From NCBI GenBank assembly GCA_030530205.1, contig JAUMVK010000011.1, forward strand, positions 24,887 through 88,886: a stretch of 64,000 bases of DNA, in the 5' to 3' direction. This stretch comes from Thermoguttaceae bacterium. GTDB taxonomy: Bacteria; Planctomycetota; Planctomycetia; Pirellulales; Thermoguttaceae. Numbering within the stretch: position 1 is the first letter of the stretch; each line of letters begins with the position of its first letter. Shown here in pieces: positions 28,052-55,574 of this stretch. The notes beneath the pieces are model-generated. The model did no database searches. It was not told the origin of the DNA and saw nothing but the letters and a program-made list of their open reading frames with translations. The translations under genes were made by a program, and so were the position numbers.

Positions 28052-28131
28052 CGGGAATACGGTGGTCTGTGGGAGGGATTGGGCTGGGAACAGCGCCCCA
28101 GCCCGTGTGATCCGTTAAAGGGCTTCGGATT

Positions 28132-28818
28132 CTAAATCTGCCGCCACTTCTTCATCCCCTCCCAATCCCGCGGAACGTCTTCGCCCGGACGAGAGACCGA
28201 CACCCGAATGACCGAGGCGGAGAGCCACTGGAAGAACTCCTGGAAGCAGAGTCCGCGCAGACGCAGCGGAGTGCCTGTCGTAAACTTCTGCAACATTCTC
28301 ATGTCCGTATCGTTACCGATAGCGATGGGGTAAACGACCAGTTTTCCGGACCGTTCGAGTTCCCAGCAGCGCCGAGCGGCCTGGTCGGTCACCATGGACG
28401 ATTCACCGCACGGCTGACCATCCGTCATCAGGACGAGCCACGGCTGGTAGTAATCGACTCCGACCATCTTGAGGCATTTCTTTTGGCGTTCCAGCGTGTC
28501 GAGAGCCAGATTCACACCGGTTCCAAGGACGGTACAGCCACTGGCGCCTGGAATTTGCGGCGTCCGACGGCACGAGCCGATGGTCTTGAAGTCCTGAATG
28601 AGGTTGGCTTGTGAAGAGAATGTGACGATCGCTGCCTCGGCGCTCGACGAGGCGGTGCAATCCATCCGGACCGACTCGTAGAATTTGGTGATTCCACGAT
28701 TCAGCTCGTTCAGTTTTTCACCAGCCATCGAGCCGGAAGTGTCGAGGCAGAGGGTGATCGGGACGCGCGGCGCCGGGTTGTTGAGGAGATCGTCAAGTTT
28801 GATCCGAAGATTTGCCAT
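28132..28818 (-). CDS. vWA-domain protein, TerY-like
   Basis: The start MANLRI at 28818 follows an AGAGG RBS. MIDAS motif LCLDTSGSM. 228 aa. Confidence 0.8.
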   Translation of the reverse strand: MANLRIKLDDLLNNPAPRVPITLCLDTSGSMAGEKLNELNRGITKFYESVRMDCTASSSAEAAIVTFSSQANLIQDFKTIGSCRRTPQIPGASGCTVLGTGVNLALDTLERQKKCLKMVGVDYYQPWLVLMTDGQPCGESSMVTDQAARRCWELERSGKLVVYPIAIGNDTDMRMLQKFTTGTPLRLRGLCFQEFFQWLSASVIRVSVSRPGEDVPRDWEGMKKWRQI

Positions 28819-28927
28819 AATTAAACCTCTTTGAAAAAATGAAATGAAATGGGAAATGTTTTGACTTTTCGTTATTTTGCAGACGTGACGAATTAAAACC
28901 ATCACGTCTTGAGGACTGCGACATGAT

Positions 28928-30781
28928 TCAGGGATTCCATCCGAAGAGTCGGCCCAGGAAGGAAAAAATGTCTGGGGACTGATTCGGTTTTGTCTGTTTG
29001 GATTGTTTGGGTGGCGTGTAAACAGGAGCCTGAACATAAACTACTGACTGCTGAGGATTCACCGCTTGAGGGGTCCTTGTCACAGATATATCCATATTCA
29101 TCTTCGCCTCCAACGCTTCAAGGTGGGCCTCAAGGTCCGTTTTCCCGTCAGTGCGCAACTGGTTCATTGGATTGGTGTTGTTTTTGATCCGGCGGCGGTT
29201 GTGGGGGAAAATCATCAGATCAAAACCGTATTTTTGACTGGGGCCTACAAAGGTTTCACGAGGATCTTTAAGGATGGTACAGTAACGATTGAACAGCCGC
29301 TGCCAGTTTTTGATAGTTGTCCGCGGTTTCCCGAAACCGTCCTTGTGGAAACAGTTAAAAAAACTGTCTTTGATCGGTCGCGGAAGATGAGACCAGCAGT
29401 AACGCCATTTCCCCTCGGGAACGCAGTCGGAGTGCCTTTCGCCGAGAGCGTAAGGAAAATGTCCTTTACGGATGTTCTCATCCGGGGCGCCGCCGCCCTG
29501 GTGCGAGTACGGATGCTTGCCCGGCAGCATGATCATGAAAAGGAGGATAGCCACGGAAAAAAGCTCGTTTTCCATCGTGCGAAGCGTGCTTCCCAACTGG
29601 GTTCCGTGGAGTTCCGGCGCGGTATAGCTCGGTACTCCGACCGGGCACGGGAACCCTTCGACCTGGAAACTGTCGCAGTCCACGAACCAGACGGACGTTG
29701 GGCTTTCGACCAGGATGTTCGCGCTGTTGATGTCACCAATGAGGAGGTTCATGCGGTGTATGTACGAAATCTTTTCAAGGATCGTACAGCACAGCTGGGC
29801 TAATTGCAAACGAGTCCATTCCTTGTGCTGCTCGAGCCAGCCGGGACTCATCGCGGATTCCTGCAATTTGGCCCCTCTTGCTCCCCACATGAGAAAACCG
29901 CGGAATTGGTTCCGGGTGTCATAGACGGACTTGACCGGCAAACAAATTCCTTTCTCCCGCGGAACGGCATGGCTCGCAAGGAGTTCCACCTTGGCCTTGA
30001 GGCAGGTCGTCAGTTTCTCTGGATAATACACCTTGCAGACCATACCGGGGACGTTGGTCTTGTAAACGGCCCCTTCACCTCCCTTGCTGATCTCATCACC
30101 AAGGACAACATTCGGGCAGTTCAAATCGTGAGTATGAACGGTGCTCCCTCTACCTATGGATTCCGTGACCGGAATAGGCTCGGGATTTACCGCTTCCGGG
30201 GCGAGCGCGACGCTTTTCCGAAAGGGGGTTGGAAAGCTTTCCTTCTCGTTCCGGGTTTTCTGATCGCGTTTTGTGCCGGACGATTGTCTCATCTGATGGC
30301 GGCGAAGAAGAGTATGGTCTTTCAGTTCTCCCCCCTCCAGAGCCAGGACCGTGATCTTGTGGTTGTGATAGATCGATTTTTGAGACAGGATGTCATAAAG
30401 ATCTTCACCGAGGCCACGGTCGTTCGTGATAACAACGATGTCCTTCTCGGAGTGATATTTCTGAACCGCGGCCAGAATAACAGCATCGCTATGAGTGACC
30501 GTATTCAACGCAAGCTCGCAGAAATCCATAAGGCCTTGCGCTCTGAATCGCTTGACAAGCCTCAAACTATTGTGGGCGCTTGCCGCTTTTTTTGAAATCC
30601 GGGCCAGTTTCTGGAGTTCATCCCAGACCGTTTTCAGAAGGATGATGGGGTTGCCGCGGAGCAGAGGGCTCAACATGTTCATCATCTTTTCGAACTCATC
30701 ATCCATAACGACACAGGTGTCAATCAGAATGAGTCCTTTAGAAAAAAGGGCCGAAAAGTTCTGAGTCTTGTTGTTTTTCAT
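28928..30781 (-). CDS. Ser/Thr protein kinase (YegI-like) with N-terminal PIN-like domain
   Basis: The ATG at 30781 follows an AAGGAAG RBS. The N-terminal ~170 aa carry LIDTCVVMDD...VITNDRGL (PIN-like acidic residues). The kinase core carries GGEGAVYK, CKVY, IGDINSANILV, VDCDSF and YTAPE. Confidence 0.75.
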   Translation of the reverse strand: MKNNKTQNFSALFSKGLILIDTCVVMDDEFEKMMNMLSPLLRGNPIILLKTVWDELQKLARISKKAASAHNSLRLVKRFRAQGLMDFCELALNTVTHSDAVILAAVQKYHSEKDIVVITNDRGLGEDLYDILSQKSIYHNHKITVLALEGGELKDHTLLRRHQMRQSSGTKRDQKTRNEKESFPTPFRKSVALAPEAVNPEPIPVTESIGRGSTVHTHDLNCPNVVLGDEISKGGEGAVYKTNVPGMVCKVYYPEKLTTCLKAKVELLASHAVPREKGICLPVKSVYDTRNQFRGFLMWGARGAKLQESAMSPGWLEQHKEWTRLQLAQLCCTILEKISYIHRMNLLIGDINSANILVESPTSVWFVDCDSFQVEGFPCPVGVPSYTAPELHGTQLGSTLRTMENELFSVAILLFMIMLPGKHPYSHQGGGAPDENIRKGHFPYALGERHSDCVPEGKWRYCWSHLPRPIKDSFFNCFHKDGFGKPRTTIKNWQRLFNRYCTILKDPRETFVGPSQKYGFDLMIFPHNRRRIKNNTNPMNQLRTDGKTDLEAHLEALEAKMNMDISVTRTPQAVNPQQSVVYVQAPVYTPPKQSKQTKPNQSPDIFSFLGRLFGWNP

Positions 30782-31471
30782 TTTCGCTTCCTTGTTGTTA
30801 GGGGTTCGAATAACCATCTATCATAATAAACTCGCAAGTGTGGCATAATGACAAAAAATTTTTGAAATTCTTAAAAAATTTTTTTGTTGCTATACCGTTG
30901 GTTTTGTCTTCTGATAATAATAACCTTCCCAATGGGATGATCTTCCAGAAAAAATGTCAATTTTTAAGATTTTCTGTAAAAAAAGGCCCCACTTGGGAGA
31001 AGGGCGTGGTCCAAAAAAAAATTATTGAAGGTCGTGAAATTGTGTTCAGTAAGGGGCGTGACTCGTTGGATCCAAGCTCTCCTTCTTATGCCCCCCTTAG
31101 TTTTCTCGAGAGAAGGGTGTTTTGGTGGACACGGCAAACCCTGAGAATCTGTAAGGTTTCAGTATGGATAAAACTGTAAAGAATAATTAAAATCTGACAA
31201 ACCAATACGATTTTCTAAAAAATCGGGAAAGGCCTCCTCCGGACCCTTGCGACCCAAGAAAAAGCATCCGTTAGCCATTTTTTTGCCGTCCGCTAATGAG
31301 AGATACCTCATTAACTTTTCATACTATAATCCATTCCTTTCTGTTAGTCTGCACATTGGTCACAATTCGGGTTTACAGGAGACTTTTCTCAGGTTCTGAC
31401 CAAGCCGGTTTGCTCCGAAAGTCAGAACCTGGACCCATCTTGTCAATTCCGATCCGCAGGCCATGGTATTC

Positions 31472-34444: not shown

Positions 34445-34632
34445 TGTGTTTTCTCCGTGGGTTTAGGGTGGCGAGGGAACCGCGTCCCCCGATCGAACAC
34501 GCGCATTATAAAGACTCCCGGAAAAATGTCAATGGGATTTATAGATAATTTGAGTAAAAATCTGAAAATAAAAGTGTCTTTTAGCCTATTTGAAATTTGT
34601 TTCCGGGGTGTTGAAAAAATTCCTCCTCCCAC

Positions 34633-34660
34633 TTGACTTTTCTTTCCTGTCGATTAAAAT
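34633..34660 (+). promoter_or_regulatory. Promoter-like site of the FGE paralog (duplicated at about 53437)
   Basis: TTGACT-16-TAAAAT. The same CCCACTTGACTTTT..TCGATTAAAATGAAG block recurs upstream of 53490. Confidence 0.4.
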
Positions 34661-34688
34661 GAAGGAAGATTATTCAAGGAGGTTAATT

Positions 34689-35741
34689 ATGAAAAAAGTA
34701 CTTGTAATTCTTGCCCTTTTGTTTTTGGGTATCTTTGTGGTATCCTACAGTTGGGCTGGAGAAGTTCGGGTGTGGACTTCGGGTGGGTTCACAGTCAAAG
34801 GTGAGTTTGTCGAACTGACAGAAAATGGTACAATCGTTCGGATTCGCAAAACCAATGGTAAAGTTGTACGGGTCCCTCTGGCAAAACTTTCTGAAGGGGA
34901 TGTGGCTTACGTGAACGAAATGCAGAATCCATTTGTGGAGGAATTGAGTGAGAGTGAAGATACGGAATCCACTGTTGATGATCACCAATTGTCACCTAAG
35001 CCAAATGAGAGCAAAAGTTATGTATTACCTTCTAACCCTAAAGCAGGGGACCGAATTGTTTTGACTGTGAATGGTGTTGATTATGCGTTCCGCTGGTGTC
35101 CGCCAGGTGAATTTATTATGGGATCGGACAATGGTAGGAATAACGAAATGCCTGCTCACAAGGTAAGAATTACCAAGGGCTTCTGGCTTTTAGAGACGGA
35201 AGTCACACAAGCAATGTGGAAGAGTATGGAGAACGTGAATCTGAGTTGGTTCAAAGGAGATCGGAATCCGGTAGAGACAGTAAGCTGGAATGACTGCCAA
35301 GAATTCTGCCAGAAACTCAGCCAGAAGTTAGGCCAGCAAGTCAAGCTCCCGACGGAGGCGCAGTGGGAATATGCCTGCCGTGCTGGTACTACTGGCGATT
35401 ACGAAGTAAATCTTGACGAGATGGGGTGGTACAGAGATAATTCGGATAGAAAAACCCACGCAGTGGGTTTAATGAAGCCGAACGCGTGGGGCTTGTATGA
35501 TATGTACGGCAACGTGTCTGAGTGGTGTTCTGATTATTATTATGAAAAATACTATGACAAATCGCCAATGAACGACCCAGAAAATATATTACCATATGCC
35601 GGAGGTCGAGTGTATCGCGGCGGGAGCTGGCGTCATAGTGCCGGGGGCTATTGGTCGGTATACCGTGATAAGGAGGATGATTCTAAATTCCGGAGTGATA
35701 ACCTCGGCTTTCGTATTTATATAGTTTCCGATCAAGACTAA
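34689..35741 (+). CDS. Exported SHD1-like + FGE (SUMF1) domain protein
   Basis: The ATG at 34689 follows AAGGAGG. Same architecture as 14364..15572 (VRVWTSGGFTVKGEFVELTENGTIVRIRK, RWCPPGEFIMGS, NAWGLYDMYGNVSEWC, RGGSW). Confidence 0.8.
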   Translation: MKKVLVILALLFLGIFVVSYSWAGEVRVWTSGGFTVKGEFVELTENGTIVRIRKTNGKVVRVPLAKLSEGDVAYVNEMQNPFVEELSESEDTESTVDDHQLSPKPNESKSYVLPSNPKAGDRIVLTVNGVDYAFRWCPPGEFIMGSDNGRNNEMPAHKVRITKGFWLLETEVTQAMWKSMENVNLSWFKGDRNPVETVSWNDCQEFCQKLSQKLGQQVKLPTEAQWEYACRAGTTGDYEVNLDEMGWYRDNSDRKTHAVGLMKPNAWGLYDMYGNVSEWCSDYYYEKYYDKSPMNDPENILPYAGGRVYRGGSWRHSAGGYWSVYRDKEDDSKFRSDNLGFRIYIVSDQD

Positions 35742-36471: not shown

Positions 36472-37728
36472 TTATAAATCACGTACGATTTTCCACGTTC
36501 CGTATTTTCTGGCCCCGACTCTTTCGATGATTCCATCCATCTGCAGTTGCTTCAGATACCTTAAAATAGTGGATCGTCCGAGTTCCATCGACTTCATCAA
36601 TTCGTCTATTGTGATGGCTGGATTATCTCGCAATCTTGCAAGTATTTCTTGCATGATTTTAGTCTTTTTAGTATCATTTTGAGACTCTTTAGTATCATTT
36701 TCTTTGCTGCATTCCGTCAGCAATCCTGTCGGCCTTATATTGCTTTCTAAAGAATCATATTCCATTTTCAGTTCCCGTAGCAATTCTTCTTCCGTGGGGA
36801 GATACAGCTTGTATTTGGAGGCGAAAATCTGATTCTCTTTTTCCGAAAGGGTGTATTGAACCAGTGAATCACTTTTGTTGGCACACAAGACAATGCCGAT
36901 TGGCGGATTGTCACCCGGGTTCATTAGCTCGCATTCGTAATAATGGACATACATCTGCATTTGTCCCAGGTCCTGATGAGTCAAATCCCCGACTTTCAGG
37001 TCAATTAACACAAAGCATTTCAGAATGTAATTGTAAAAGACCAGGTCGATCCGAAAATGCCTTCCGTCAAACGTAAAACGTTTTTGCCGGGCTACAAACG
37101 AGAAGCCACGGCCAAGCTCAAGCAGAAATTTTTGCAGGTGCGTAATCAAAGCCTGTTCCAGATCGCTTTCATAAAAATCGTCGTTCGGATTCAAACCAAG
37201 AAATTCCAGAACATAAGGGTCCCGGATTACATCGGATGGAGTTTGGCCAGGTTCAAGTTTTTGGATCTCTGCCGCCACCCCTTTTTTGTCTCGACTGGAA
37301 AGAAGCCGTTCGTAGAAAAAAGAGTCGATCTGTCGGGCCAGTTGACGAACACTCCAGCGGGATTTAATGGCTTCTGTGGTATAAAACTGGCGGGCTTTTT
37401 CACTATCAACCTGAATCAGGAGTCTATAATGTGACCAACTCAGATCTTTAGAGAGTTCAAGGAAATTGGGAAATGCGAGGTAAAACTGCCGCATATATTT
37501 GAGGTTCGTTGCGGTAAATCCTTTTCCAAAGTCATTAGTCAGTCTTTCCGCCAGTTCCTGAATAAGTTACTTGCCGTACTCGTTGCGTTCTGCTCCCCCT
37601 TGTTCCGCAACGATCATTTTCCCGATGTTCCAATATGCTTCCACCATCATGAAATTCACGCTATAGTACACTTTTGACCGAGCCTCGGTCAAGATTTGCA
37701 GGATTTGGTTGTAAAAATTCTCATTCAT
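36472..37728 (-). pseudogene. DUF1016 (YhcG-like PD-(D/E)xK nuclease) with C-terminal wHTH; premature TAA at codon 54
   Basis: The reading frame runs from the ATG at 37728 and is interrupted by an in-frame TAA (37569..37567). Downstream are IDLVFY...LIDLKVG (D...D.K) and a C-terminal ITIDELMKSMELGRSTILRYLKQL HTH. The 36472..37494 part could still be expressed from an internal Met. Confidence 0.7.
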
Positions 37729-38135: not shown

Positions 38136-39074
38136 TCAAAGTTTCCAGATTTCTTCACATTTTGAAACATAATCCTCAAACAATTTCAAATCAAACGAAC
38201 GAACTGGCTTCTCTTGTAGATGTTTTTTTAATTTGATAAATATATCTTTATGATCCATCTTGTCTTGATTTCCAGAATCCGGCTTCAAATATCTGGTAAT
38301 ATCGGAGAATGCTTCCTGTCCTAAAAAATCTACAATCTTGTAAACCTCTTGTAAGCCAGAAGAAGATGAAGACGGAACATACAACTCACAAATACTGTTT
38401 TGAATTGAGGAATGAAAAAGATCTTCGTTTTGATGCCACTTGAGTTTATAACGACTAATAAATGTTTGGATTTTAGGATCAAACCTGATAAATGGAAAGG
38501 GAGTCTGAGATGCGAGTTCAACAACATCACCCATGCCAGCTCCATAAAAACCGTAAGTCAATTCACTACCTAAACCAATAGAAATTGCCCCATGTAAATA
38601 GATTCCCATACTGAATAGTTGGAAACAAGACGCGATACACGCCTGTATCATTACAAATAGTGGTATGACACTTATTGTTTGGCAGCAAAAATGCTCTCTT
38701 GGATTATAGAGTCTGCAATAAAATAAGAGAGAATGTCCCAGTATTTGAACTTCAAGTTTGTTTGTTGCCTGGAAGCAATTATAATCCTGGAAAATTTGTT
38801 CAAAACAAGTTATTGTAAATTCGATGCGTGTTCGCATTTCAGCATATTGAGGGCTTAGTTTTTTCATAAGAGCATTAGATGGAATTCGATAATCAATTTC
38901 TTCATTACAAAGATCTTCAATTTCCAAATAGCAAAGTACAAACATTCCAGGTTCGGAAGAAAGTGTTTTTTTGACTCTAAAATGGAAAATTTCAGGAATT
39001 ACGGGAAGAAGTCCTTTTGATTCTCCAAGTGTATTTTCTTCAAGGATTCTATTTATAAGTTGATCCTTGTTCAT
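38136..39074 (-). CDS. Hypothetical; degenerate paralog of the upstream palm-cyclase-like protein
   Basis: Aligns with 39074..40018 (GIYLHGAISIGLG vs GIFFRGGISLGRG; VVELASQ vs ACELEES; KIVDFLGQEA vs YVVDTFGEAS). The acidic positions are changed (YLEIEDL, GHSLLFY). The start overlaps the upstream stop (TAATG). Confidence 0.6.
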   Translation of the reverse strand: MNKDQLINRILEENTLGESKGLLPVIPEIFHFRVKKTLSSEPGMFVLCYLEIEDLCNEEIDYRIPSNALMKKLSPQYAEMRTRIEFTITCFEQIFQDYNCFQATNKLEVQILGHSLLFYCRLYNPREHFCCQTISVIPLFVMIQACIASCFQLFSMGIYLHGAISIGLGSELTYGFYGAGMGDVVELASQTPFPFIRFDPKIQTFISRYKLKWHQNEDLFHSSIQNSICELYVPSSSSSGLQEVYKIVDFLGQEAFSDITRYLKPDSGNQDKMDHKDIFIKLKKHLQEKPVRSFDLKLFEDYVSKCEEIWKL

Positions 39075-40018
39075 TATTTACTCCTGGCTTGAACTGTTTT
39101 TTTTAAGTCAATATACTTTTGTTGAATATGGGGCTTATTTTGGAATTCTTGGATTTTTTGATCTGCTATTTTGAGTATTTTCAGACATTTTTGTTCAAAA
39201 TAACCAGGACTGTATTTTTCTAATAGAGTTTTTGAGGCCTCTCCAAAAGTATCCACCACATATATGCTAGGATCATTTTCATCTTTTTTAAGTATTCTGA
39301 AATTATTGTAAACGGAGTTTTGTATTATGGAGTCAAAATCTATTTCATGTAGTCGTTGAGCAGGTAGAACAATTCTGAATGATTTTGCTTTACTCTCTTC
39401 TAATTCACAAGCTTCATAAACAGGATAGGCATACAAGTTTCCTGTAAGAATCCTCATTCCACGCCCTAAACTTATACCACCGCGAAAAAAAATACCTTCG
39501 GAAAAGAACTCCAACATCGCATGTACACATATAATTAACATTATTTCAACGCTTGTTAATAATAGATTGTCAGCACATGCTACTTGAGTATATATCATAA
39601 TCGAATCTGAAAAGATTTCGGAATGAACTGGATATAGATATTCAAGACGTTGAGTGTTACCAAGTAATGGGAATAATTCTAGTATTTTCTGCTTGCTTTC
39701 AATCAGTTTGTTAATGTGATCAACAAAAAATGTTCTAAACTTATCAATTGTTCTGAGTATCTCCTGTTGTTTCTGTATTGCTCGAAAAATAGATCCATTT
39801 TCGACTGACTGTTGGATATCACTCAGTTTGTCTTTTTGACCAATTAAGTCAATGAAACACACAAGATAAAGCGGCAAGTAATTTTCCTGATTTCTCTGAA
39901 CAAGAAATTCCAGTAATTCCTGTAATTGAGACTCGTCAAGTTTTTTTAATCCTTGAAAACTTTCTGGTTCATTATGGAATGATGTATTCACATCAGTTTT
40001 AATGTGGATAATTGACAC
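39074..40018 (-). CDS. Hypothetical; nucleotide-cyclase/GGDEF/Cas10-palm-like protein (inferred)
   Basis: A GTG start at 40018 lies 5 nt after GGAGGA and 25 nt after the helicase stop. The motif order CFIDLIGQK ... IFSDSIMIY ... FFRGGISLGRG ... YPVYEACELEESKA parallels FxDxxGFT / GDxxM / RxGxHxG / VNxAARLE of palm-domain cyclases. Confidence 0.35.
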   Translation of the reverse strand: MSIIHIKTDVNTSFHNEPESFQGLKKLDESQLQELLEFLVQRNQENYLPLYLVCFIDLIGQKDKLSDIQQSVENGSIFRAIQKQQEILRTIDKFRTFFVDHINKLIESKQKILELFPLLGNTQRLEYLYPVHSEIFSDSIMIYTQVACADNLLLTSVEIMLIICVHAMLEFFSEGIFFRGGISLGRGMRILTGNLYAYPVYEACELEESKAKSFRIVLPAQRLHEIDFDSIIQNSVYNNFRILKKDENDPSIYVVDTFGEASKTLLEKYSPGYFEQKCLKILKIADQKIQEFQNKPHIQQKYIDLKKTVQARSK

Positions 40019-40043
40019 ATTTGTCCTCCAATGTGGAAAGTGT

Positions 40044-42158
40044 TTATTTAAGGAATTCAGATGGCGTGCCAAAACTTGTGATCCACGCCGCTTTTTGCGC
40101 TCGGGTGAGGGCAACATATAGAAGACACTTTTCCGACGTAGTTGTTTCTAGGCGCGTCTGTTCATCCGTTCGGTCGATGGATGCTGGAAGAGGAATCGTA
40201 CCATGGTTGACTGCCGCGACGAATACGTACTGGAATTCGAGACCTTTTACCCGGTGCATGGTGGCAATCCGAAGACCATCCGTGGAACGATCGTCGCTTT
40301 GTGTGCCCGTGATTTCAAAGGTTGGAATTCCGCTTTCTGAGAAACGTCTGGAGTATTCCTCAAGAAGTTTGTGCGTTCTCGCAACCAGGCAAATGTTTTC
40401 CAGTGCCACGTCCTCTTCGGTCAGATTCAGGATTTCTGTCAGGAGAAATTGAAATTCATCATCCGGGTTTTCAAACGTTTGTATCTTTGGCGGATTGCCG
40501 TGCATTAATGATTTACAACGATCACCAGGGTCGAGAGCTTCGTCCAGATCGTCAAAATCAACACCTTGAAGAAGCGCGAAAGCGAACTTTCTCGTTTCTT
40601 CGGTCGTTCTGTAATTGATTCTCAAAGTGCTTGATCTTCCACGAATAGCGACTCCGCAGGAAGAAAGAACCGCGTGGTTTCTGTATATTCGCTGATGAGA
40701 ATCCCCGACGATGAACAAATCGTTTTCATGTTCCCCGCCCGCCAAAGCTCGCAGAAGCCGGAAAGCGTTCGGGCTGAAATCCTGTCCTTCATCTACAATG
40801 ACATGTTTGTATTTTACAGAATTCAAACCGTTCTCGACCATCACCCGACAATCGGCCATGGCGGTATGAATGTCACGCACATTTTGTTCCTGCGTGAGTC
40901 TTTGGTAGGCATCGAAAACTTTCCAAACGTCTTTACGGCGGCTTTGAGTCAAGCCCGTCCCACGGCCAGAACGGTTAGCCGCGAGGTATTTTTCAAGAGT
41001 AAAAGCTTCCTGGGACGCAGCAACACGTGCCCATTCTTCCTTGAAAAACACCTTCGGAAGTTTCAGCTCCGCCGGTTTTTCCTTGCAGGCTTCGTTCCAG
41101 ATTTCTTTCATAGTTTCGTCTTCATAGTGAACCTCCGCCCCGTAATTTTGCGAGGCGAGAAACTCCCGCACCCACGCGTCCAGATTGACGACTTCAATCC
41201 GGGCAAATTCTTCCGGAGAACAAATTTTACGGAGATTCTCGCGAATGTCCGAGGCAAGATTGGCGGTAAAAGTAGCAAAAAGGATCTTGCCGGAAGTCAA
41301 TTTCGAGGCCAGAAATTTGGCGCGATGAAGGGCCACGACGGTTTTCCCGGTCCCGGCTCCTCCAAGTACACGGGCGGGGCCGGAGAACGTTTTCTCCATG
41401 ATTTTACGCTGGGTCGGATGCAAAAAAACACGCCATTTCTCGAGCGGCTCGGAGAGAATTTTGCGAAGTTCCTCCTCGCCATCCACGACGACGAACGACC
41501 TCGTGTTTTGTGGGCTCTCCAAGGCCTCGGCAAATGATTCCGCCGCAGGTTTGGGGCCACGATCCGCCGCAGCAAGTTCCAAAACTTCCGCTACAGGCAG
41601 ACCGTCCGCGAGGTAGGACAGATATTCGTACGCGTCACTTGGAAAAATCTTTGAGGCGGCTTTAAACTCATCATCCGAGACGATTTTTCTCACGAGAATG
41701 ATCTGCTCAGAAGGTACGCCGAGAGTCAAAAGATCGGCATCGCTTACGTTCTGGAAAAGACGGTAAGGGACGGCATAACCCGCATATTGGGGGACCAAGT
41801 CTTCTTTTTCCCCCTGTTCGACCTCGTAAACCTGAATGCTTCCCGAATAGGCATTGACCGCGCATCGCCGCCGGCAGGCCCATTCGTATGCCTCGTCGTG
41901 ATGGTCGATCCAGAGCAGAAGATACGTCCCGCTTTCCTCCTCACGTGCGAGAATCCCCCGGTATGTGTCATCGATCCGGATCGAACAGAGCCGTTTGTCC
42001 GCGGCATTGGTGATTTTCTCATAGTTCATCCCCGGCGTTTTGGGATTTTTCTGAAACTTATCGATGAAATCCGTGACTTTCCCCTGTATTTTCCTTGGCA
42101 GCTGCGCAAAGGCAGAGAGAAAGTCGGTGGACATCGCGATTTTGGGTTTGGTGGTCAT
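40044..42158 (-). CDS. SF1 UvrD/Rep-family helicase with N-terminal RelE/ParE-like domain
   Basis: GGAGTGKT Walker A, VIVDEGQDF Walker B, ATMHRVKGLEFQYVF and LLYVALTRA C-terminal motifs. The N-terminal ~95 aa (LPRKIQGKVTDFIDKFQKNP..PG..YEKI....RLCSIRIDDTYRGIL....G.YLLLWIDHHDEAY) follow the RelE/ParE toxin pattern. Confidence 0.8.
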   Translation of the reverse strand: MTTKPKIAMSTDFLSAFAQLPRKIQGKVTDFIDKFQKNPKTPGMNYEKITNAADKRLCSIRIDDTYRGILAREEESGTYLLLWIDHHDEAYEWACRRRCAVNAYSGSIQVYEVEQGEKEDLVPQYAGYAVPYRLFQNVSDADLLTLGVPSEQIILVRKIVSDDEFKAASKIFPSDAYEYLSYLADGLPVAEVLELAAADRGPKPAAESFAEALESPQNTRSFVVVDGEEELRKILSEPLEKWRVFLHPTQRKIMEKTFSGPARVLGGAGTGKTVVALHRAKFLASKLTSGKILFATFTANLASDIRENLRKICSPEEFARIEVVNLDAWVREFLASQNYGAEVHYEDETMKEIWNEACKEKPAELKLPKVFFKEEWARVAASQEAFTLEKYLAANRSGRGTGLTQSRRKDVWKVFDAYQRLTQEQNVRDIHTAMADCRVMVENGLNSVKYKHVIVDEGQDFSPNAFRLLRALAGGEHENDLFIVGDSHQRIYRNHAVLSSCGVAIRGRSSTLRINYRTTEETRKFAFALLQGVDFDDLDEALDPGDRCKSLMHGNPPKIQTFENPDDEFQFLLTEILNLTEEDVALENICLVARTHKLLEEYSRRFSESGIPTFEITGTQSDDRSTDGLRIATMHRVKGLEFQYVFVAAVNHGTIPLPASIDRTDEQTRLETTTSEKCLLYVALTRAQKAAWITSFGTPSEFLK

Positions 42159-47623: not shown

Positions 47624-47652
47624 TTGACAACGCATTTTGTCTGTATTATAAT
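47624..47652 (+). promoter_or_regulatory. Consensus sigma70-type promoter of the GTPase operon
   Basis: TTGACA (47624..47629), a 17-bp spacer, then TATAAT (47647..47652). Located in an AT-rich 290-bp gap after sbcC. Confidence 0.55.
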
Positions 47653-47826
47653 ATAAAGTAAAATCATTTTTTTGTGAAAATTTTTTCATAAAACCAGAAT
47701 TTTTATGGAAAATTTTAACACTTATTCGTTATAATATATAGAATCCTTCTTGAAATTTTGCGAAACAAAAGTTATCGATTTCACGTTTATATTCCCAATG
47801 ATCCATTGTTTGAAAGGAATGATTTC

Positions 47827-50037
47827 ATGGCTTCATTTTTCAAAAAACTGATTACCAAGAAAAGCTTCGCGTGGCTTTTTCCTCTCGTACTTTTGGTTTT
47901 CGCGTTCCTGCTGTGGCAGGTCGGAATGAAAGCGCTTACTTCCAAAGAAGTCTCCGGGATGGAGTCTCAAGTTCGGGATATTCTCAAAGATTGCCCACCC
48001 GAAATCACCACGAAGATTTTGGAACGTTTTCCAAACCATGATTTGGCCCTGGCCGCGACACTTCAGGAGCGCAAGCAACTTGGGACCGATGGCTTGGCCC
48101 GGCTTGCCGATTCCACTCAGGCGGCTCTGGATCATGAAATGTCCGTTCTGGCTGCAAATCCCGAGATGTTGGCCGCCAACATGGAGGATCAGCGAGATGC
48201 GTTTTTAACCGTTCACTGCCTTACGATGGACCTGAACTCCCAAACCGCAGAGAAGTCCGGGAATTCTGACCTTATTGCGGCTTCGCAAGCGATGAACGCC
48301 GAGTATCTCTCGGTTCTTCAGGATGCCTCGAAAAAACCGGATCTGTGGGTTAAAGTGCGTGAAAATCCGATGTTCGCGTTCCTGCTTATCCAGCAGAAAC
48401 GTGATCTCCGTGAGCACCCGGAACGGAACGATTGGGCTGACCTGCTGAAGTTTTATGATGAAGAGGCTGAATGGCTGGATGACGTTTTGGTTAGCCTTAC
48501 GCTTGCCTCGCAAGGGATCCTTAATGAGAACATGGACGACAGTGAAAACCTCAGTCTGGAAGTTTATGACATTCTGAAAACGATCAAGAAAAACCAGCCC
48601 TACTTCAAAGAAGTCGCGAACGCTTATCTTTCGGACCCGGAATGCGACGTGGAAGAAGGAGCCGCGATTGTGTATGTCATCTTCCAGAATTTCGGCGGTG
48701 CGATTCGTGAATGTGTTCGGTCACAAACGTGCGATACGCTGGAAACGTTTGAAGTCATTTTTGCCAATCAACAATGGTTTATGGAGAATGCATTAAACTC
48801 TTTGGACACCGCCAACAAAGCATTGGCCGAAAAGCTCAAAAGCTGGAAGCGCAACATGCCGAACGCGTGGAAGGTGTGCTCCGTCGTGCCTTTCACGGTG
48901 AATCTGATGAGCGACTTGCCGGATTTGGCGGATTCTCTTTCGGAGAAGTATGCCGCGGACGATTTGCCCACACTTCTTTATACCTTCTACCCGGATGAAG
49001 TGGCGCAGGCCGCTGCGTGTATCGATAAATTTGGCGATTTGGCTCTTTACGAACTGAATTTCTATAAAAATTCGGAACTATTTCACAAGCATCTCGCCAA
49101 TAACTCTATCGGTCCGAGAATTATTCCTTATGTGGCTCGTTTCGAGGACAAAGGATTGGATGATTTATCCAAAAACCTTGAATGGCTGAATAAGTATTTT
49201 GACAAAGACGGAAATCCCATTAAGGATGAATGGTGGGTGAGCTTTCCTGGCGGTGGCGCGATTAAAGTCGTAAAAAACAAGCTGGAAGGAAAGCCAAGCA
49301 CTTGGGGCGAACTTGGGTGGGCAGCTCTTGACGTCGCGGATGCTGGTCTGCTCGTTTTGTCATTTGGAACCAGCGGAGTGGTAACGGAATCCGGAAAAAC
49401 CGCTGTGAAATCCGGGGCAAAAGCCATCGTTGAAGCAGGCACGAAGGCGACCATCAAAACCGGGGCGAAACGAGAACTTCGCAAAACTTTTTTGAAACAG
49501 GCATTTAAAAAGAATTTGGCCAAAATCAGCAAATCAACTGTGGGGAAACTTGCCGTTCGCAGCTGGCGTTTCGTATGTGGTGTTGGAGGGCGAATCACCA
49601 TGATTGCGGTCAGGGTTGCCAAGATAACCAAACAGATTTTTACAATTTCATTCAACGCGATCCGGAATACTTATCGAATTGCTCGTGGTGCGTGGCTCAG
49701 TGTTCCGGCAAATGTCCGCAAGGGGGTATACCGCTCGCTTCTGGCGGTTTCGGTAGGCTATACTATCCTTTTCAAGACGATGCCGGCATTGCCCGACCTG
49801 ATGGAAAAAACTGGCGAGTTTATCGGTAAGATTCCGGCCCAGATCGCTCAAACCGTCGCTGATTCTACGGGTGCGGTTCTCGCGGGAGTCATCAATGGAC
49901 TGCTCGGAATCGATTCTCCCAGCCCCAGGAAGTTTTTAACAGTTTTTCTTTCCTTCCTTGGCGCGATCGTACTCCTGGTTTTTTCCGGATTTTTTACCTA
50001 CAAAAATTATTACTCACAAGCTGGTATAAGGGCTTAA
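47827..50037 (+). CDS. Large membrane protein, no recognised domain (operon gene 1)
   Basis: ATG at 47827. N-terminal TM helix (FAWLFPLVLLVFAFLLW), about 480 aa helical soluble region, a Lys/Ala-rich amphipathic segment, and C-terminal TM helices (LLAVSVGYTILF, FLTVFLSFLGAIVLLVFSGFF). Confidence 0.6.
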   Translation: MASFFKKLITKKSFAWLFPLVLLVFAFLLWQVGMKALTSKEVSGMESQVRDILKDCPPEITTKILERFPNHDLALAATLQERKQLGTDGLARLADSTQAALDHEMSVLAANPEMLAANMEDQRDAFLTVHCLTMDLNSQTAEKSGNSDLIAASQAMNAEYLSVLQDASKKPDLWVKVRENPMFAFLLIQQKRDLREHPERNDWADLLKFYDEEAEWLDDVLVSLTLASQGILNENMDDSENLSLEVYDILKTIKKNQPYFKEVANAYLSDPECDVEEGAAIVYVIFQNFGGAIRECVRSQTCDTLETFEVIFANQQWFMENALNSLDTANKALAEKLKSWKRNMPNAWKVCSVVPFTVNLMSDLPDLADSLSEKYAADDLPTLLYTFYPDEVAQAAACIDKFGDLALYELNFYKNSELFHKHLANNSIGPRIIPYVARFEDKGLDDLSKNLEWLNKYFDKDGNPIKDEWWVSFPGGGAIKVVKNKLEGKPSTWGELGWAALDVADAGLLVLSFGTSGVVTESGKTAVKSGAKAIVEAGTKATIKTGAKRELRKTFLKQAFKKNLAKISKSTVGKLAVRSWRFVCGVGGRITMIAVRVAKITKQIFTISFNAIRNTYRIARGAWLSVPANVRKGVYRSLLAVSVGYTILFKTMPALPDLMEKTGEFIGKIPAQIAQTVADSTGAVLAGVINGLLGIDSPSPRKFLTVFLSFLGAIVLLVFSGFFTYKNYYSQAGIRA

Positions 50038-50040
50038 ACA

Positions 50041-51990
50041 ATGACTGACACAAAGAAAACCACGAAAAAAACGTTGAAAATCACCCTCATCGGTTCTGAA
50101 GGAACCGGTAAATCGGCTTTTTTGGCCGGATTGGCGGTTTTGGGACTGGATTCGCTGAATCCCCAATACCGTATTGCTCCTCACAACAATGCGACTTCCG
50201 TGTACCTGAATACTCTGCGCGAGTCCTTCATCATCCACAACGCCTGGCCTACACCGACACTGGTCACCCAGCTTTTGGATTTTGACCTGACGATCAACCG
50301 AACCAAGCTCAACCTGGTGACGATCGACTACGGCGGCGAGCTTTTCCGTGAGGCGTTCAATCAGATGAAACCGGAGGATATGCAGGCGTTTTCAGACCAT
50401 CTTCGTCAATCGGAAGTCCTGCTCTTTCTGGTTGACGCCGAGGAAGTGGTCGAGGCCCAGAACAGTGGAAAACAATTCGCTCTGAGTGAAAAACTCCGCG
50501 CGAACCTGACGGCCGTTCAGGAGTCTTGCAAGGAATTCGCAAAGACAAATCAGGACAAATTCAACGAAATGGAACTCTGCATCGTCCTCACGAAAGCCGA
50601 CCGGATCCCTGAACTGGCAGGGGCCGTGGAGGACTCTGCCATCGCCCGTGCTTTTGGTGATAAGTATTTCGGCAAGGTGCTCGAAACCAAAGTGGATGGT
50701 ATTAAAACGGAAAATATTCGTTACTTTGCGGTCAGCTCCATTGGCAAAAACGCGCTTGACCCGACGAGCCAATCCCTGATTCCGGGAAAGATCCAGCCGG
50801 AGGGCTACAACAATTTGTTTACGTGGATCTCCAAACGCGGGACCCGCCGTTTCAATCGGTGGCTTGTTGCCACAATGATTTTTGGTTTGATTGTTGGAGT
50901 AGGTATCGGAGTGACGTGTTTGGGCGGGAAAGTTACTGTCGATCAGCTGCATGAACAGCATGTCAGAGAAGCTTTGCAAATCCTCCAAAATCCCAATGTG
51001 CCTGTCATTGACAGACTAACAAATAGTGAAATGCTAAAAATTAATGACAAGAGAGTAACGGATGAACGTCAGAAACTGTTTGAATCTCATAAAACAAATC
51101 TTCTGGCTGAACTTGAAAAATCCCATGAAAGTAAAACCATTATTGAATTGCGCGATAAAATCAAGTCAGAAAAAGAAAGGATTGGCGGGATACTTTGGGA
51201 AACGGACCTTCAAAACATCCTGGATAAGTGTAATTCGCAAGTTGAGGAAATTGATTATAAAGAGGTTACTGTTCTTTATGAAAATGACAAAGAAGACTTT
51301 GGAGAGAAAGCGACAGCCTTCCTTGTAAATCATCCAAAGTCAGAACACAAATCGGAGATAGAGGAATATATTCACCAAAAGAAGATTTCTAAAATTAATG
51401 GCGCTAAGCACGCAATAGCGGCCATTCCCGTAACGCCTGGCACCATACAGGGAAAAATCGACAAGATTAATTGGTATCTCACCGAGTTTGAAAAAGACGT
51501 CAAAGATGCTGAAAAGGAAAAAATTGAAAAAGCTGTAAATATGGCCAATACTTTTAAAACCAAACATCAGTATACGGTCAAAATTATTAGTCATGGTCAG
51601 TTTAGTTCCACAAGGGCACAAAAAATTCAGATTAAAATTAATAATCAGGACGTTTTAAAAACTGATTATAAAAAAGCCGAGACAGTGAACCTCAATCGTG
51701 ATTTTACCTTCAGCTGGAAGTATGGAGAACCTATCGAATTTATTCTTCTTGGGTACGAAGGTTTTGGCCATTGGAAATATAAAGAATACGCAAGTGTTCG
51801 TTTAGATGGTTTTGACGCACTCAAGGCTTTTTCTCAGTCAAAAATCGAACTGAATGCCCTTCGGGGAGAAAAATATCACGGTCCTGATGGCTTTTATATC
51901 AAGTTTGAGCAGAGTCGTTACACTCCCGAAGAATGGAGTAATTTTGAGTATTACATCGCTCCTGGAGGCTTTTGGGAGGAAACCAAATGA
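50041..51990 (+). CDS. TM-anchored Ras-like (TRAFAC) GTPase with coiled-coil and beta-rich C-terminal domain (operon gene 2)
   Basis: G1 GSEGTGKS, G3 DYGGE, G4 TKAD, G5-like SSIG. TM helix WLVATMIFGLIVGVGIGVTCLGG at about aa 275. Starts 4 nt after gene 1. Confidence 0.7.
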   Translation: MTDTKKTTKKTLKITLIGSEGTGKSAFLAGLAVLGLDSLNPQYRIAPHNNATSVYLNTLRESFIIHNAWPTPTLVTQLLDFDLTINRTKLNLVTIDYGGELFREAFNQMKPEDMQAFSDHLRQSEVLLFLVDAEEVVEAQNSGKQFALSEKLRANLTAVQESCKEFAKTNQDKFNEMELCIVLTKADRIPELAGAVEDSAIARAFGDKYFGKVLETKVDGIKTENIRYFAVSSIGKNALDPTSQSLIPGKIQPEGYNNLFTWISKRGTRRFNRWLVATMIFGLIVGVGIGVTCLGGKVTVDQLHEQHVREALQILQNPNVPVIDRLTNSEMLKINDKRVTDERQKLFESHKTNLLAELEKSHESKTIIELRDKIKSEKERIGGILWETDLQNILDKCNSQVEEIDYKEVTVLYENDKEDFGEKATAFLVNHPKSEHKSEIEEYIHQKKISKINGAKHAIAAIPVTPGTIQGKIDKINWYLTEFEKDVKDAEKEKIEKAVNMANTFKTKHQYTVKIISHGQFSSTRAQKIQIKINNQDVLKTDYKKAETVNLNRDFTFSWKYGEPIEFILLGYEGFGHWKYKEYASVRLDGFDALKAFSQSKIELNALRGEKYHGPDGFYIKFEQSRYTPEEWSNFEYYIAPGGFWEETK

Positions 51991-53201
51991 ATCCAATAAC
52001 CGCCCCTTACATTCGTTATGGTCGGTTTACATCGGAAAATATGGGAGGGAATGACCAGTACGGCGTGCTGGATTCTTCTCCCGATTTTCCAGCAGAGGCC
52101 CGGAGTCTGCTGGAACGCCGCATCGTGCAGAGTTTCCAGTGGACGAACGGCTCGATCGACGTTTATCCCGACTCCTTTCTGTTTTGGAGGCTGGACGAGG
52201 AACGGTTTCTGTTCGCGCGCCTCTCAGACGGCGGGAAGGACTCACGCAACCGGCCCCATTCCGTTCGTATTCTCGCGGTTCTTTTGGCAAATTCCCAGTT
52301 TGAGAATCTGCCCGAAGAACTTGCGGCTCTGGCGAATTCCTCTGTCTGGTCAGAGCCTGCGGATGGCCTCCTGACTCTCCAGAATACGGGTTCCAATTCG
52401 TTAACACTGGCCGGGAAACTGGAAGCTGCACTGGCTTCCGGAAAGCGGACGATCCTGATTTTACGTCATCCGTTTGTCCAGAAAGCGGAAGGAGTCTTCG
52501 AGATCAACGATTTCGCCGAATCGGACTTCCCGAAGCCGATCTCAGCCTATACGCCTCAATATCCTGTACCGACTGTCTGTCAATCACCGACTTCTTCCTT
52601 TAAAGAGGACAATCCCATGAATAAACCCCTGATTTATATCCTTCTGTTTCTGTTGATACTTAGTGTGGGAAACAATATTTTCCTTTCGAGGCGGATTTCA
52701 TCGATTTCAAAACAGGTCACGGAAAACGTTTCACAGATTGCTGAAGCAAAGAAGACCCTGGCCGAAAATTTCCAAACCCAAATTAATGAGATCAACGAAG
52801 GTTTAGAGACTCAAACCCAGAATTTAGACGCTTTAGATAAAACAGTCAAGGAACTTTCCAGGAAACAATTAACCAATGAGGATTTCGAAAGTAAATTTCA
52901 AGGTATCCAGGAAAAGATAGGAAAAATGGAGGAGGAAATAAAAAAAATAAAGGAGAATATTAAATCTGCTCCTTCAAAACCAGAAGGAGATTATGAAACA
53001 AATGATGAAAAAAGTGAAGCAGTACCTTCCCAAACAGAAGACCTGACCAATTCTCCTCATCCTAATCCGGCAGGAGGTAAAGTAACAACTCAAGAAAACC
53101 GCACAGTAACCCCTTTCCCAAAAGAAGTGAATAAATCAGAAATTCCGGATGATTTAAAAAAAGCGGTCGGGAGTTCGAGATTCAACGCCACTTTCAATTG
53201 A
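51987..53201 (+). CDS. GAP1-N-like domain + TM helix + coiled-coil/low-complexity tail (operon gene 3)
   Basis: ATGA overlap with the gene 2 stop. The N-terminal pattern YIRYGRF..., QYGVLDSSPDF, DSFLFWRL and FARLSDGGKDSRNRPHSVRILAVLL resembles the GTPase-associated protein 1 N-domain (recalled from memory). TM helix LIYILLFLLILSVGNNIFL. Confidence 0.45.
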   Translation: MNPITAPYIRYGRFTSENMGGNDQYGVLDSSPDFPAEARSLLERRIVQSFQWTNGSIDVYPDSFLFWRLDEERFLFARLSDGGKDSRNRPHSVRILAVLLANSQFENLPEELAALANSSVWSEPADGLLTLQNTGSNSLTLAGKLEAALASGKRTILILRHPFVQKAEGVFEINDFAESDFPKPISAYTPQYPVPTVCQSPTSSFKEDNPMNKPLIYILLFLLILSVGNNIFLSRRISSISKQVTENVSQIAEAKKTLAENFQTQINEINEGLETQTQNLDALDKTVKELSRKQLTNEDFESKFQGIQEKIGKMEEEIKKIKENIKSAPSKPEGDYETNDEKSEAVPSQTEDLTNSPHPNPAGGKVTTQENRTVTPFPKEVNKSEIPDDLKKAVGSSRFNATFN

Positions 53202-53489
53202 CGATATCAATGATTTTTATTCGCTGGTGTCCCGTCAAAATTCAGGAAAAACAGCGAATCCCTCGTGCAGGGCTTGCCTCCGATAAATTGAAATCGTTAC
53301 AAGCTCAATTATAGCGTAAGTGCCGTAATTTACGAGGGATACGCGATGGGTAAAAAAATTTGATGGGACACTAGTGGTTTTTTTGCTGTCTCGCAAGTTT
53401 ATTTCTGCTCTCCGAAAAAATTTCCTCACCCACTTGACTTTTTCCTCTCCGTCGATTAAAATGAAGAAAAATTTCCATGGAGGTGAATT

Positions 53490-54272
53490 ATGAAAAAACT
53501 GTTTGCTGTCCTTGTCCTTTTGTTTTTGGGTGTCTTTTGGGTATCATGCAGTTGGGCCGACGAACTTCCTTCTAATCCAGATGTTGGGGACAGAATCGTT
53601 CTGACTGCGGACGGGGTCGAATATGCCTTCCGCTGGTGTCCTCCGGGCGAGTTTATGATGGGCGGTACAGGTTCTGACGAGAAGCCGGTCCACAAAGTGA
53701 AACTGACGCGAGGCTTCTGGCTTTTGGAGACGGAGGTTACGCAGGAAATGTGGCAGAGCGTGATGGGGAGTAATCCGAGCAAATTCAGTGGAGCGAAGAA
53801 GCCGGTCGAGCAAGTGAGTTGGGACGATTGCCAGTCGTTTTGCCAGAAATTGAGCCGGAAACTGGACCAGCAGGTCAAGCTCCCGACAGAGGCGCAGTGG
53901 GAATACGCTTGCCGCGCTGGTACAACGGGCGATTATGCGGGTGATCTTGATTCGATGGGTTGGTACGTTGACAATTCGGGTTCAACGACCCACGCAGCAG
54001 GTCAGAAGAAACCGAACGCATGGGGCCTTTACGATATGCATGGCAACGTATGGGAATGGTGTTCGGATTTCTATGACGCGAAATTCTACGACAGGTCGCC
54101 AGCGAGTGACCCGGAAAACACAGAGCCTTCCTCGTACCGCGTGTTTCGTGGTGGGGACTGGTTTTTCAGCGCCGGGTTCAGCCGGTCGGCGTTCCGTTTC
54201 AGAGACGCGCCTGACTACCGGGTCTATTTCCTCGGTTTGCGTGTTCTTTTAGTTCCCAGTCCAGAAGAGTAG
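53490..54272 (+). CDS. Exported FGE (SUMF1) domain protein (no SHD1 module)
   Basis: Signal peptide. RWCPPGEFMMGG, NAWGLYDMHGNVWEWC and RGGDW blocks. The promoter block is duplicated from 34620. Confidence 0.85.
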   Translation: MKKLFAVLVLLFLGVFWVSCSWADELPSNPDVGDRIVLTADGVEYAFRWCPPGEFMMGGTGSDEKPVHKVKLTRGFWLLETEVTQEMWQSVMGSNPSKFSGAKKPVEQVSWDDCQSFCQKLSRKLDQQVKLPTEAQWEYACRAGTTGDYAGDLDSMGWYVDNSGSTTHAAGQKKPNAWGLYDMHGNVWEWCSDFYDAKFYDRSPASDPENTEPSSYRVFRGGDWFFSAGFSRSAFRFRDAPDYRVYFLGLRVLLVPSPEE

Positions 54273-55411: not shown

Positions 55412-55574
55412 AACGGCCCATTATAGTTAGATGTCTAACTTTTGTCAAGAGGGGGGGTGGGGAATCGGGACAATTTCACCAAATTTTTTTGAGGGCGTGG
55501 CAGCTTGTACATTCGTGAATGCAGAGATCGACCGAGCCGCTGAGGAAAATTTTGAAAATTTTGACCGCCGGTCA

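Follow-up and report, generated by a model that had tools for sequence, protein, structure and literature searches.

GTPase-centric systems built on a DO-GTPase and a GTPase-associated protein, GAP1, have been predicted computationally as membrane-proximal conflict systems (Kaur et al., 2020; PMC7159879). In the sections of that paper that were available, about 900 organisms are counted for the N2 type alone, planctomycete and verrucomicrobial members are noted together with transmembrane (TM)-anchored GAP1 proteins and GTPases that carry a C-terminal TM segment and a beta-sandwich, and most of the versions described are large and include tubulins, HSP70, FNIII repeats or kinases (PMC7159879). 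The same sections give a glutamate in the Walker B motif as the defining trait of DO-GTPases and define GAP1 by its position immediately downstream of, or its fusion to, a DO-GTPase gene; a second GTPase copy is found in 38% of the systems and N-terminal zinc ribbons in 60%, neither being universal. A three-gene operon (g1, g2 and g3; Table 1) of a Thermoguttaceae bacterium (Planctomycetota; assembly GCA_030530205.1, contig JAUMVK010000011.1) very probably represents this class as a DO-GTPase/GAP1-N2 triad. It lies in a stretch of 64,000 nucleotides (nt), here called the window, which was analyzed over its full length. The triad is a minimal all-membrane variant within a computationally known class and not a categorically new system.

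The product of g2 matches the Pfam family DO-GTPase2 (PF19993) with 30.4 bits, above the gathering cut-off of 27. DO-GTPase2 is also matched by 18 of 20 syntenic g2 homologues, with a best expectation value (E) of 5.6e-15, and DO-GTPase1 by 15 of them. All four GTPase motifs that the initial annotation had listed for this protein (GSEGTGKS, DYGGE, TKAD and SSIG) were found, with key residues invariant or nearly so in the homologues. The family patterns are GxxGxGK[ST], D-Y-[PG]-G-E, [TS]-K-x-D and S-[AS]-x-G, and Glu100 of g2 corresponds to the Walker-B glutamate (PMC7159879). Because the nucleotide-binding motifs are kept, g2 is apparently an active DO-GTPase. In the earlier designation "Ras-like GTPase" the GTPase part stands, and "Ras-like" is too loose, as the family is a separate lineage of the TRAFAC clade with a Walker-B glutamate; the single TM helix proposed at that time is likewise predicted. 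Each locus has one GTPase gene with no paralogous second copy, and the N-terminus of g2 lacks a Cys-rich zinc-ribbon motif, only two cysteines being present in residues 1-270. An NCBI entry 100% identical to g2, from a Thermoguttaceae metagenome-assembled genome (MAG), is annotated as "hypothetical protein". An AlphaFold2 (AF2) model of g2, built on a two-sequence alignment, has a predicted local distance difference test (pLDDT) score of 54 and is unusable for the GTPase domain (pLDDT <50). This low-confidence model has a helical stalk followed by a C-terminal beta-domain, which gave Foldseek matches to C2 domains (E 0.01-0.1, target-normalized TM-score 0.45-0.57) and is tentatively regarded as C2-like. 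Such a domain would fit the "beta-sandwich beyond the C-terminal TM" of Kaur et al. (PMC7159879).

The third gene stands in the place that defines GAP1, directly 3' of the DO-GTPase gene. Its product matches the Pfam family GAP1-N2 (PF20013) over model positions 10-127 of 139, with E 7.8e-5 and a score of 23.2 bits that narrowly misses the cut-off of 24. Within the g3 family, four of 20 members match this model at E<0.01 (best E 8.8e-6), GAP1-N2 being the sole recurrent N-terminal Pfam family among the 20 homologues; the precomputed match of the homologue at locus L005 is rated "weak". The initial annotation had called g3 a GAP1-N-like protein with an N-terminal block, a TM helix and a coiled-coil/low-complexity tail. 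This layout was confirmed and the block proved to be conserved across the family, while the similarity to GAP1-type domains was recovered as a borderline one to GAP1-N2. The domain is closed by a conserved motif, D-x-G-x-D-x(2,3)-R-P-H-[ST]-x-R-I, in which Arg89 is a candidate GTPase-contacting or arginine-finger residue, judging from the family alignment. Only some 80 residues lie between the N2-like domain and the TM helix. Beyond approximately residue 130 the protein consists of a short linker, the TM helix and the coiled-coil/low-complexity tail, and GAP1-M and GAP1-C are therefore absent. The g3 sequence profile returned TM noise or coiled-coil noise only from the PDB, and PADLOC returned coiled-coil matches only, at residues 211-358, including LeoA noise.

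The triad resembles the GAP1-N2 systems of Kaur et al. in having a DO-GTPase with the Walker-B glutamate followed by a gene with a borderline GAP1-N2-type N-terminal domain, a C-terminal TM helix in GAP1, a GTPase with one C-terminal TM helix and a beta-rich domain, and membrane-proximal members in planctomycetes and verrucomicrobia with mobile-looking neighborhoods. It differs from them in its single GTPase copy without N-terminal zinc ribbons, in the lack of tubulin, HSP70 or directly linked kinase themes, and in its constant polytopic partner of about 700 residues (aa), which belongs to an undescribed family and has no recognizable effector domain. Whereas GAP1-N2 systems have variable effectors, the neighborhoods of the triad vary but g1 is constant, and only a few of the loci have FGE or caspase genes close by. 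The large partner g1, the reduction of GAP1 to N2, the absence of FNIII and the cassette exchange reported below are not described in the available sections of Kaur et al., and the text of their supplement, as far as it was available, does not list these loci. Two other layouts are more remote. The GTPase + GAP1 + GASH layout shares an all-alpha third protein, given the all-alpha confident core of g1, but g1 has no Pfam GASH match and is polytopic, and g3 matches N2 and not N1. The dynamin-like LeoA/Eleos systems share a GTPase and membrane association in a candidate defense setting, but belong to another GTPase lineage, and no GTPase-domain match to any defense GTPase model was obtained with PADLOC.

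Loci related to the operon were gathered with a g1 profile, which gave 28 loci from one genome per GTDB species as well as metagenome contigs. The g2 and g3 genes at these loci were scored by iterated hidden Markov models and then inspected by eye. A g2 homologue lies directly 3' of g1 on the same strand in 22 of 24 scorable genome loci, and a g3-type gene lies directly 3' of g2 in 17 of 19, the same position being found in the metagenome loci. The g3-type genes encode an N-terminal domain with "...GRR/RPH-T-V/I...", then a TM helix and a coiled coil. The order g1-g2-g3 thus recurs at about 20 loci in at least six phyla, with gene ends usually overlapping or near-abutting, and the co-occurrence of the three genes outside this genome, on which the first description depended, is borne out. 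Most hosts are Planctomycetota, many of them termite-gut MAGs; the others are Verrucomicrobiales, Akkermansia, Hydrogenedentota, Synergistales, Saprospiraceae (Bacteroidota) and a deltaproteobacterial MAG. The distribution across phyla is patchy, and no recurrent fourth gene was found beside the triad outside close relatives. One could suppose that the three open reading frames (ORFs) are unrelated neighbors or mis-called and have no joint function. This is scarcely credible: about 20 loci from different phyla share the gene order and strand, there is a stop/start overlap, functional motifs are invariant and both alleles described below are under purifying selection (dN/dS 0.16), and by its synteny and selection the triad refutes this reading. 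As a separate observation, the Isosphaeraceae MAG MFD04463.bin.2.46 contains two separate triad loci (L029 and L036), both frameshifted into many short ORFs. The frameshifts probably reflect long-read indel error, with pseudogenization as a possible cause, and the loci may be two paralogous copies in one genome.

Comparison of the window with independent assemblies (L001, L038, L039 and L040) revealed a natural allele swap inside the operon. Nucleotide identity to the window is 99.7-100% from at least 42.3 kb to 49.89 kb and again at 52.25-53.38 kb, but 68-88% (about 80%) within a block at 49890-52250. The synonymous divergence (dS) is 0.84 within the block, whereas the parts of g1 and g3 that flank it have values of 0.004-0.009. 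The ratio of nonsynonymous to synonymous divergence (dN/dS) of g2 between the alleles is 0.16, and both alleles are therefore functional. Amino acid identity between the alleles is 72-73% in the periplasmic part of g2, 85% in its GTPase domain and 92% in the GAP1-N2 part, and on its 3' side the block ends at the conserved RPH motif of g3. In L006, a lineage with an overall identity of only about 82%, the counterpart of the alternative block matches it at 93-100%. A chimeric assembly as the cause of the mosaic was rejected, since the same mosaic occurs in four independent assemblies. In our interpretation, a co-adapted cassette underwent homologous replacement. The joint exchange of the GTPase, the GAP1-N2 domain and the last TM helix of g1 between strains is taken to mean that these parts behave as one co-adapted unit, and it suggests that this last TM helix contacts g2. 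The exchange fits the co-evolution of DO-GTPase and GAP1 noted in the available text of Kaur et al. (PMC7159879).

The first gene had been described as encoding a 736-aa membrane protein without a recognized motif, and indeed g1 has no significant match in Pfam, PADLOC, NCBIfam or the sequences of the PDB. It is the constant third partner of the triad and the founding member of a family of undescribed fold. A word-index search gave 25 homologues, and an HMMER scan of 1.84 billion representative proteins gave 263 representative clusters at E<=1e-3, nearly all of 650-750 aa; the eight longest relatives (P0132, P0155, P0144 and others) were scanned and contain no informative domain fusion. An AF2 model based on a 23-sequence alignment has a confident all-alpha core at residues ~140-470 (pLDDT 75-92), for which Foldseek returned nothing below E 0.6 from the PDB. 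A RabGAP/TBC resemblance (Foldseek E 1.5-6) was taken as chance among all-alpha proteins, and the sequence profile of g1 gave TM noise or coiled-coil noise only against the PDB. The identification of g1 with the "GYF pair plus TM-rich" protein of Kaur et al. was also rejected, as neither g1 nor 23 of its relatives match GYF.

The distribution of charged residues points to an arrangement of the three proteins across the inner membrane. Lysine and arginine are more frequent on the N-terminal flank of the single TM helix of g2 in 18 of 20 sequences, and the GTPase would therefore be cytoplasmic and the C-terminal part of about 350 aa outside the inner membrane. The median net charges in g1 (23 sequences) are -26 for residues 37-495, +19 for residues 515-636 and +4 for the C-terminal tail, which fits a four-TM, N-in model with a periplasmic acidic domain and a cytoplasmic basic segment. 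The charge bias at the TM flanks of g3 is not decisive, and its N-terminal domain, which has no signal peptide and is expected to meet the GTPase in the cytoplasm, is placed on that side. In this arrangement the cytoplasmic side would hold the GTPase domain, the GAP1-N2 domain and the basic segment of g1, and the periplasmic side would hold the acidic alpha-domain of g1 (~460 aa), the coiled coil of g3 and the outer part of g2, a helical stalk tipped by the beta-sandwich.

The reading favored overall, to which we give an even chance, is a trans-envelope GTP switch of the DO-GTPase/GAP1-N2 class at the inner membrane. The periplasmic parts would sense a disturbance of the envelope, for example an attacking or injecting phage, and this signal would change the nucleotide state of the GTPase. 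That state would be set by the GAP1-N2 domain, possibly via Arg89, and the GTPase would in turn control g1 as the membrane-acting output, most likely through depolarization or permeabilization in the manner of abortive infection. A biological role in conflict or defense by abortive infection is plausible and is proposed tentatively. In its favor are the low-GC island with defense-type genes that holds the operon, the toxin-antitoxin, transposase, caspase and DISARM- or BREX-type genes in or near other copies of the triad, the lack of conserved neighbors, the strain-variable 3' flank, the patchy distribution and the prediction by Kaur et al. of a conflict function for the class. A more detailed version, which is unlikely to be correct in all its parts, is a trans-envelope immune sensor in which the periplasmic stalk of g2, C2-like at its tip, would act together with the acidic g1 domain to detect phage-induced disturbance of the envelope, the signal would pass through the inner membrane to the cytoplasmic DO-GTPase, whose state the single-domain GAP1-N2 partner would set via Arg89, the released basic segment and TM hairpin of g1 would collapse the membrane potential, and the alleles of g2, the GAP1-N2 domain and the g1 C-terminus would form a recombining cassette under balancing selection. 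If this version were true, the operon would give the DO-GTPase/GAP1 class as a whole its first minimal member that is experimentally tractable, and a function would be defined for the new family of ~700-aa membrane proteins.

A number of observations weigh against the trans-envelope switch and its role in defense. The assignment of g3 to GAP1-N2 is borderline, with a score under the cut-off and only four of 20 family members matching; no GAP1-M or GAP1-C match occurs among the Pfam hits listed for g3, so that, unlike in GAP1-N2 systems, GAP1 is cut to its N2 domain. The FNIII-repeat component of those systems is also missing, with no match to the FNIII family in g1, g2, g3 or their family members. 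No toxin, nuclease or pore domain is recognizable in the triad, and an effector role of g1 is therefore a guess. PADLOC-DB v2.0.0 gave 0 matches for g1 and g2, the plasmid collection contains no homologue of g1 or g2 (tblastn), and the IMG/VR viral contigs contain none of g1. Four termite-gut Planctomycetaceae MAG loci are exceptions to the triad, with g1 only (L004/L014, L017) or g1 and g2 (L015, L023); the retention of full-length g1 without both partners or without g3 suggests decay, or that g1 can act alone. The topology is predicted from charge rules (positive-inside) alone. A search of the literature gave no experimental work on DO-GTPase/GAP1 systems; the initial annotation had stated that no defense system with this membrane-anchored three-gene layout is known to have been characterized experimentally. 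Finally, g1 is conserved to the same degree as g2 and g3, unlike the hypervariable effectors of the class, and many triad loci lie amid housekeeping genes such as those for aconitase, gyrA, topA and S-adenosylhomocysteine (AdoHcy) hydrolase.

The conservation of g1 and the housekeeping neighbors at many loci speak at the same time for a rival, in which the triad is an envelope-stress or membrane-maintenance module like YcjX-YcjF, with the GTPase monitoring or repairing damage to the inner membrane or periplasm and g1 as a stabilizing or scaffolding partner. The YcjX-YcjF pair travels with phage-shock (Psp) genes. The best solved relative of the g2-family profile in the PDB is the stress GTPase YcjX (6nz4/6nz5), with a whole-sequence E of 0.002; the P-loop, WPxxT and DYPGE motifs are common to both, and the match consists of two short stretches, neither of which is individually significant. 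Like the triad, YcjX-YcjF (PDB 6nz4) combines a P-loop GTPase, a DYPGE-type Walker B and a similar P-loop context with a neighboring gene for a membrane protein, and the literature ties the pair to envelope/phage-shock stress and DO-GTPases to psp operons, which supports the rival. All three triad proteins are membrane-bound with large periplasmic parts, and the C-terminal TM hairpin of g1 (residues 682-723; 49870-49995) weakly resembles Transgly_assoc, the Pfam family of the GlsB/YeaQ/YmgE stress proteins (E 1.3e-4; 22.5 bits, below the cut-off of 25.3), although only two of 23 g1-family members match this model. Unlike g2, however, YcjX is soluble and has a much larger GTPase region, the likeness being at the level of motifs; YcjF is unrelated to g1 by the searches run, and the pair has no GAP1-like third protein. 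At the loci examined the triad shows no linkage to psp, ycjF or other stress genes, the operon lies within a low-GC island in the window, and a sporadic distribution together with allele swapping at 20% divergence would be unusual for a maintenance role. An envelope-stress function is accordingly rated as possible though doubtful.

The long coiled-coil stalks of g2 and g3 and the predominance of the family in Planctomycetota could also be explained by a lineage-specific envelope-organizing or cytoskeleton-like apparatus that shapes the enlarged planctomycete periplasm or serves division or surface-structure assembly through GTP-dependent oligomerization. Weak Foldseek echoes of Sey1p and mitofusin, both membrane-anchored GTPases, point in the same direction, with E 0.017-0.047 and a root-mean-square deviation >20 Å that make them unreliable. 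Yet a neighborhood confined to division, motility or secretion genes, considered earlier as a sign of a housekeeping function, was not seen; the flanks of the triad form no conserved context of any of these kinds. The triad is likewise found in Synergistales, Saprospiraceae, Hydrogenedentota and Akkermansia, whose cell plans differ, it is partly lost in some MAGs, and 263 clusters among 1.84 billion proteins make a small family for a core morphogenetic factor. Such an apparatus is quite improbable.

Whichever role applies, the compactness of the operon, the g1 family and the natural allele swap open the class to direct tests. With three genes in 5.4 kb and a consensus sigma-70 promoter, the operon is a practical entry point, a new family of ~700-aa membrane proteins is tied to a GTP switch, and the allele swap points to the GTPase, the GAP1-N2 domain and the last TM helix of g1 as interacting parts. 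If the triad is a defense system, it would be a rare case of nuclease-free immunity built wholly from envelope-spanning proteins; an envelope-stress function would mean that YcjX-like GTPase signaling reaches into the Planctomycetes-Verrucomicrobia-Chlamydiae (PVC) bacteria.

Table 1. Features of the triad operon and of its surroundings in the window (nucleotide positions of the window; aa, residues of the respective protein)
Feature	Position	Strand	Description
Sigma-70-type promoter	47624..47652	+	TTGACA 47624-47629, 17-nt spacer, TATAAT 47647-47652; 12/12 match
g1	47827..50037	+	736-aa polytopic membrane protein from ATG; ORF call
g1 layout			Predicted: TM1 aa 14-32; acidic all-alpha domain 37-495; TM2 496-514; basic segment 515-636; TM3 637-655; TM4 703-721
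g1 basic segment, aa 515-636	49369..49734	+	Family median net charge +19; predicted to be cytoplasmic, with long amphipathic helices
g2	50041..51990	+	649-aa DO-GTPase2-family GTPase; Pfam, motifs and synteny
g2 layout			GTPase domain aa 1-270; single TM ~275-293; helical stalk ~300-505; beta-rich C-terminal domain ~506-649
g2 P-loop/G1, GSEGTGKS, aa 18-25	50092..50115	+	G18, G23, K24 invariant in 20 homologues
g2 Walker B/G3, DYGGE, aa 96-100	50326..50340	+	G99 invariant; D96, E100 at least 90% conserved
g2 G4, TKAD, aa 184-187	50590..50601	+	Guanine-specificity motif; K185, D187 invariant
g2 SSIG, aa 232-235			S232, G235 invariant in 20 homologues
g3	51987..53201	+	404-aa minimal GAP1-like protein; Pfam GAP1-N2 (borderline) and synteny
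g3 layout			GAP1-N2-like domain aa ~14-126; linker; TM ~210-233; coiled-coil and low-complexity tail
g3 Arg89 codon	52251..52253	+	Only invariant side chain of the GAP1-N2-like domain besides M1 and P7 (family alignment)
Allelic cassette	49890..52250	+	2.36 kb: g1 codons 688-736 (last TM and tail), all of g2, g3 codons 1-88
Further perfect TTGACA-N17-TATAAT sites	3791-3819; 25677-25705; 55420-55448	-; +; -	Window scan
Card1-like protein	12567-13802	+	CARF and Card1 endonuclease domain; separate low-GC patch at 12.6-13.8 kb
PP2C phosphatase, vWA and 629-aa kinase-like trio	27245-30817	-	TerY-P-like; ~17 kb from the triad
YhcG-type PD-(D/E)xK nuclease	36472-37494	-	C-terminal winged-helix; PADLOC PDC-S02, E 2e-116
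GajB-like UvrD helicase with 347-aa and 312-aa proteins	38136-42158	-	Helicase 704 aa with ~245-aa N-terminal extension; GC 0.32-0.35
Secreted FGE-sulfatase-domain protein	53490..54272	+	Pfam E 6.7e-45; own promoter-like site 53434-53462

In the packing of the genes the ATGA overlap of the g2 stop and the g3 start is as first described, but the gap between g1 and g2, earlier given as 4 nt, measures 3 nt (aca). The ATG of g1 follows a GGAA-rich ribosome-binding context, and a TTG at 47758 is an alternative start. The consensus promoter noted in an AT-rich gap is indeed present, within 293 nt of AT-rich sequence and 175 nt 5' of the g1 ATG. The perfect 29-nt TTGACA-N17-TATAAT consensus occurs four times in the window vs. 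0.01 expected by chance; the match is therefore meaningful, as a promoter type used by the organism. It is 100% kept in the near-identical strains L001 and L038. At distant triad loci it is not a conserved feature, and the promoter was dropped as a trait of the family.

The GC content of the window is 0.55-0.61 in the flanks and lower in a stretch at ~22-54 kb, which holds the operon together with defense-type genes, as the initial annotation had proposed of an AT-richer island. One of its members is the trio of PP2C phosphatase, vWA and kinase-like genes; in the available sections of Kaur et al., a kinase-PP2C-vWA trio is reported at 10% of GAP1-N2 neighborhoods in actinobacteria (PMC7159879). 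The GajB-like helicase and two companion proteins, neither of which has a match in Pfam, PADLOC or NCBIfam, form a candidate helicase-based defense module, and in L006 this three-gene module lies directly 3' of the triad (7634-11659, 70-90% identity). SbcCD is also encoded in the low-GC stretch of the window and was rejected as a component of the system, since it lies beside the triad in this species alone (L002, L038) and neither in L006 nor at any distant locus. The Card1-like protein, near which no CRISPR-Cas genes were seen, may be an orphan nuclease activated by cyclic oligoadenylate.

Around other triads, transposases (L008), genes for a caspase and a WD40 protein (L025) and caspase and FGE-sulfatase genes (L006) are found, and 118 pooled triad neighbors include strong matches to DISARM (DrmA, DrmD), SngC and BrxC/D. 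At L005 an MNT/HepT (nucleotidyltransferase/HEPN) toxin-antitoxin pair and a 57-aa ORF (5213-5852) lie between g1 and g2, the triad being otherwise intact. Three FGE-sulfatase-domain proteins are encoded in the window (14304-15572, 34590-35741 and 53490-54272), two of them with an N-terminal SHD1, and FGE-domain genes occur near the triad also in L006 and L020. FGS effectors are mentioned for planctomycete GAP1-N2 systems in the available text of Kaur et al. (PMC7159879). The FGE genes may represent this "FGS effector" theme or merely the commonness of the domain in planctomycetes. The gene immediately beyond g3 may be an accessory "FGS" component; it probably lies outside the operon. Homology between near-identical strains, judged from the window, L038, L041 and L042, ends at 53380, 180 nt past the g3 stop. 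Beyond this point the site is strain-variable, with the FGE-sulfatase gene in the window, an unrelated minus-strand gene in L038 and a gene with an RE_endonuc domain in L042.

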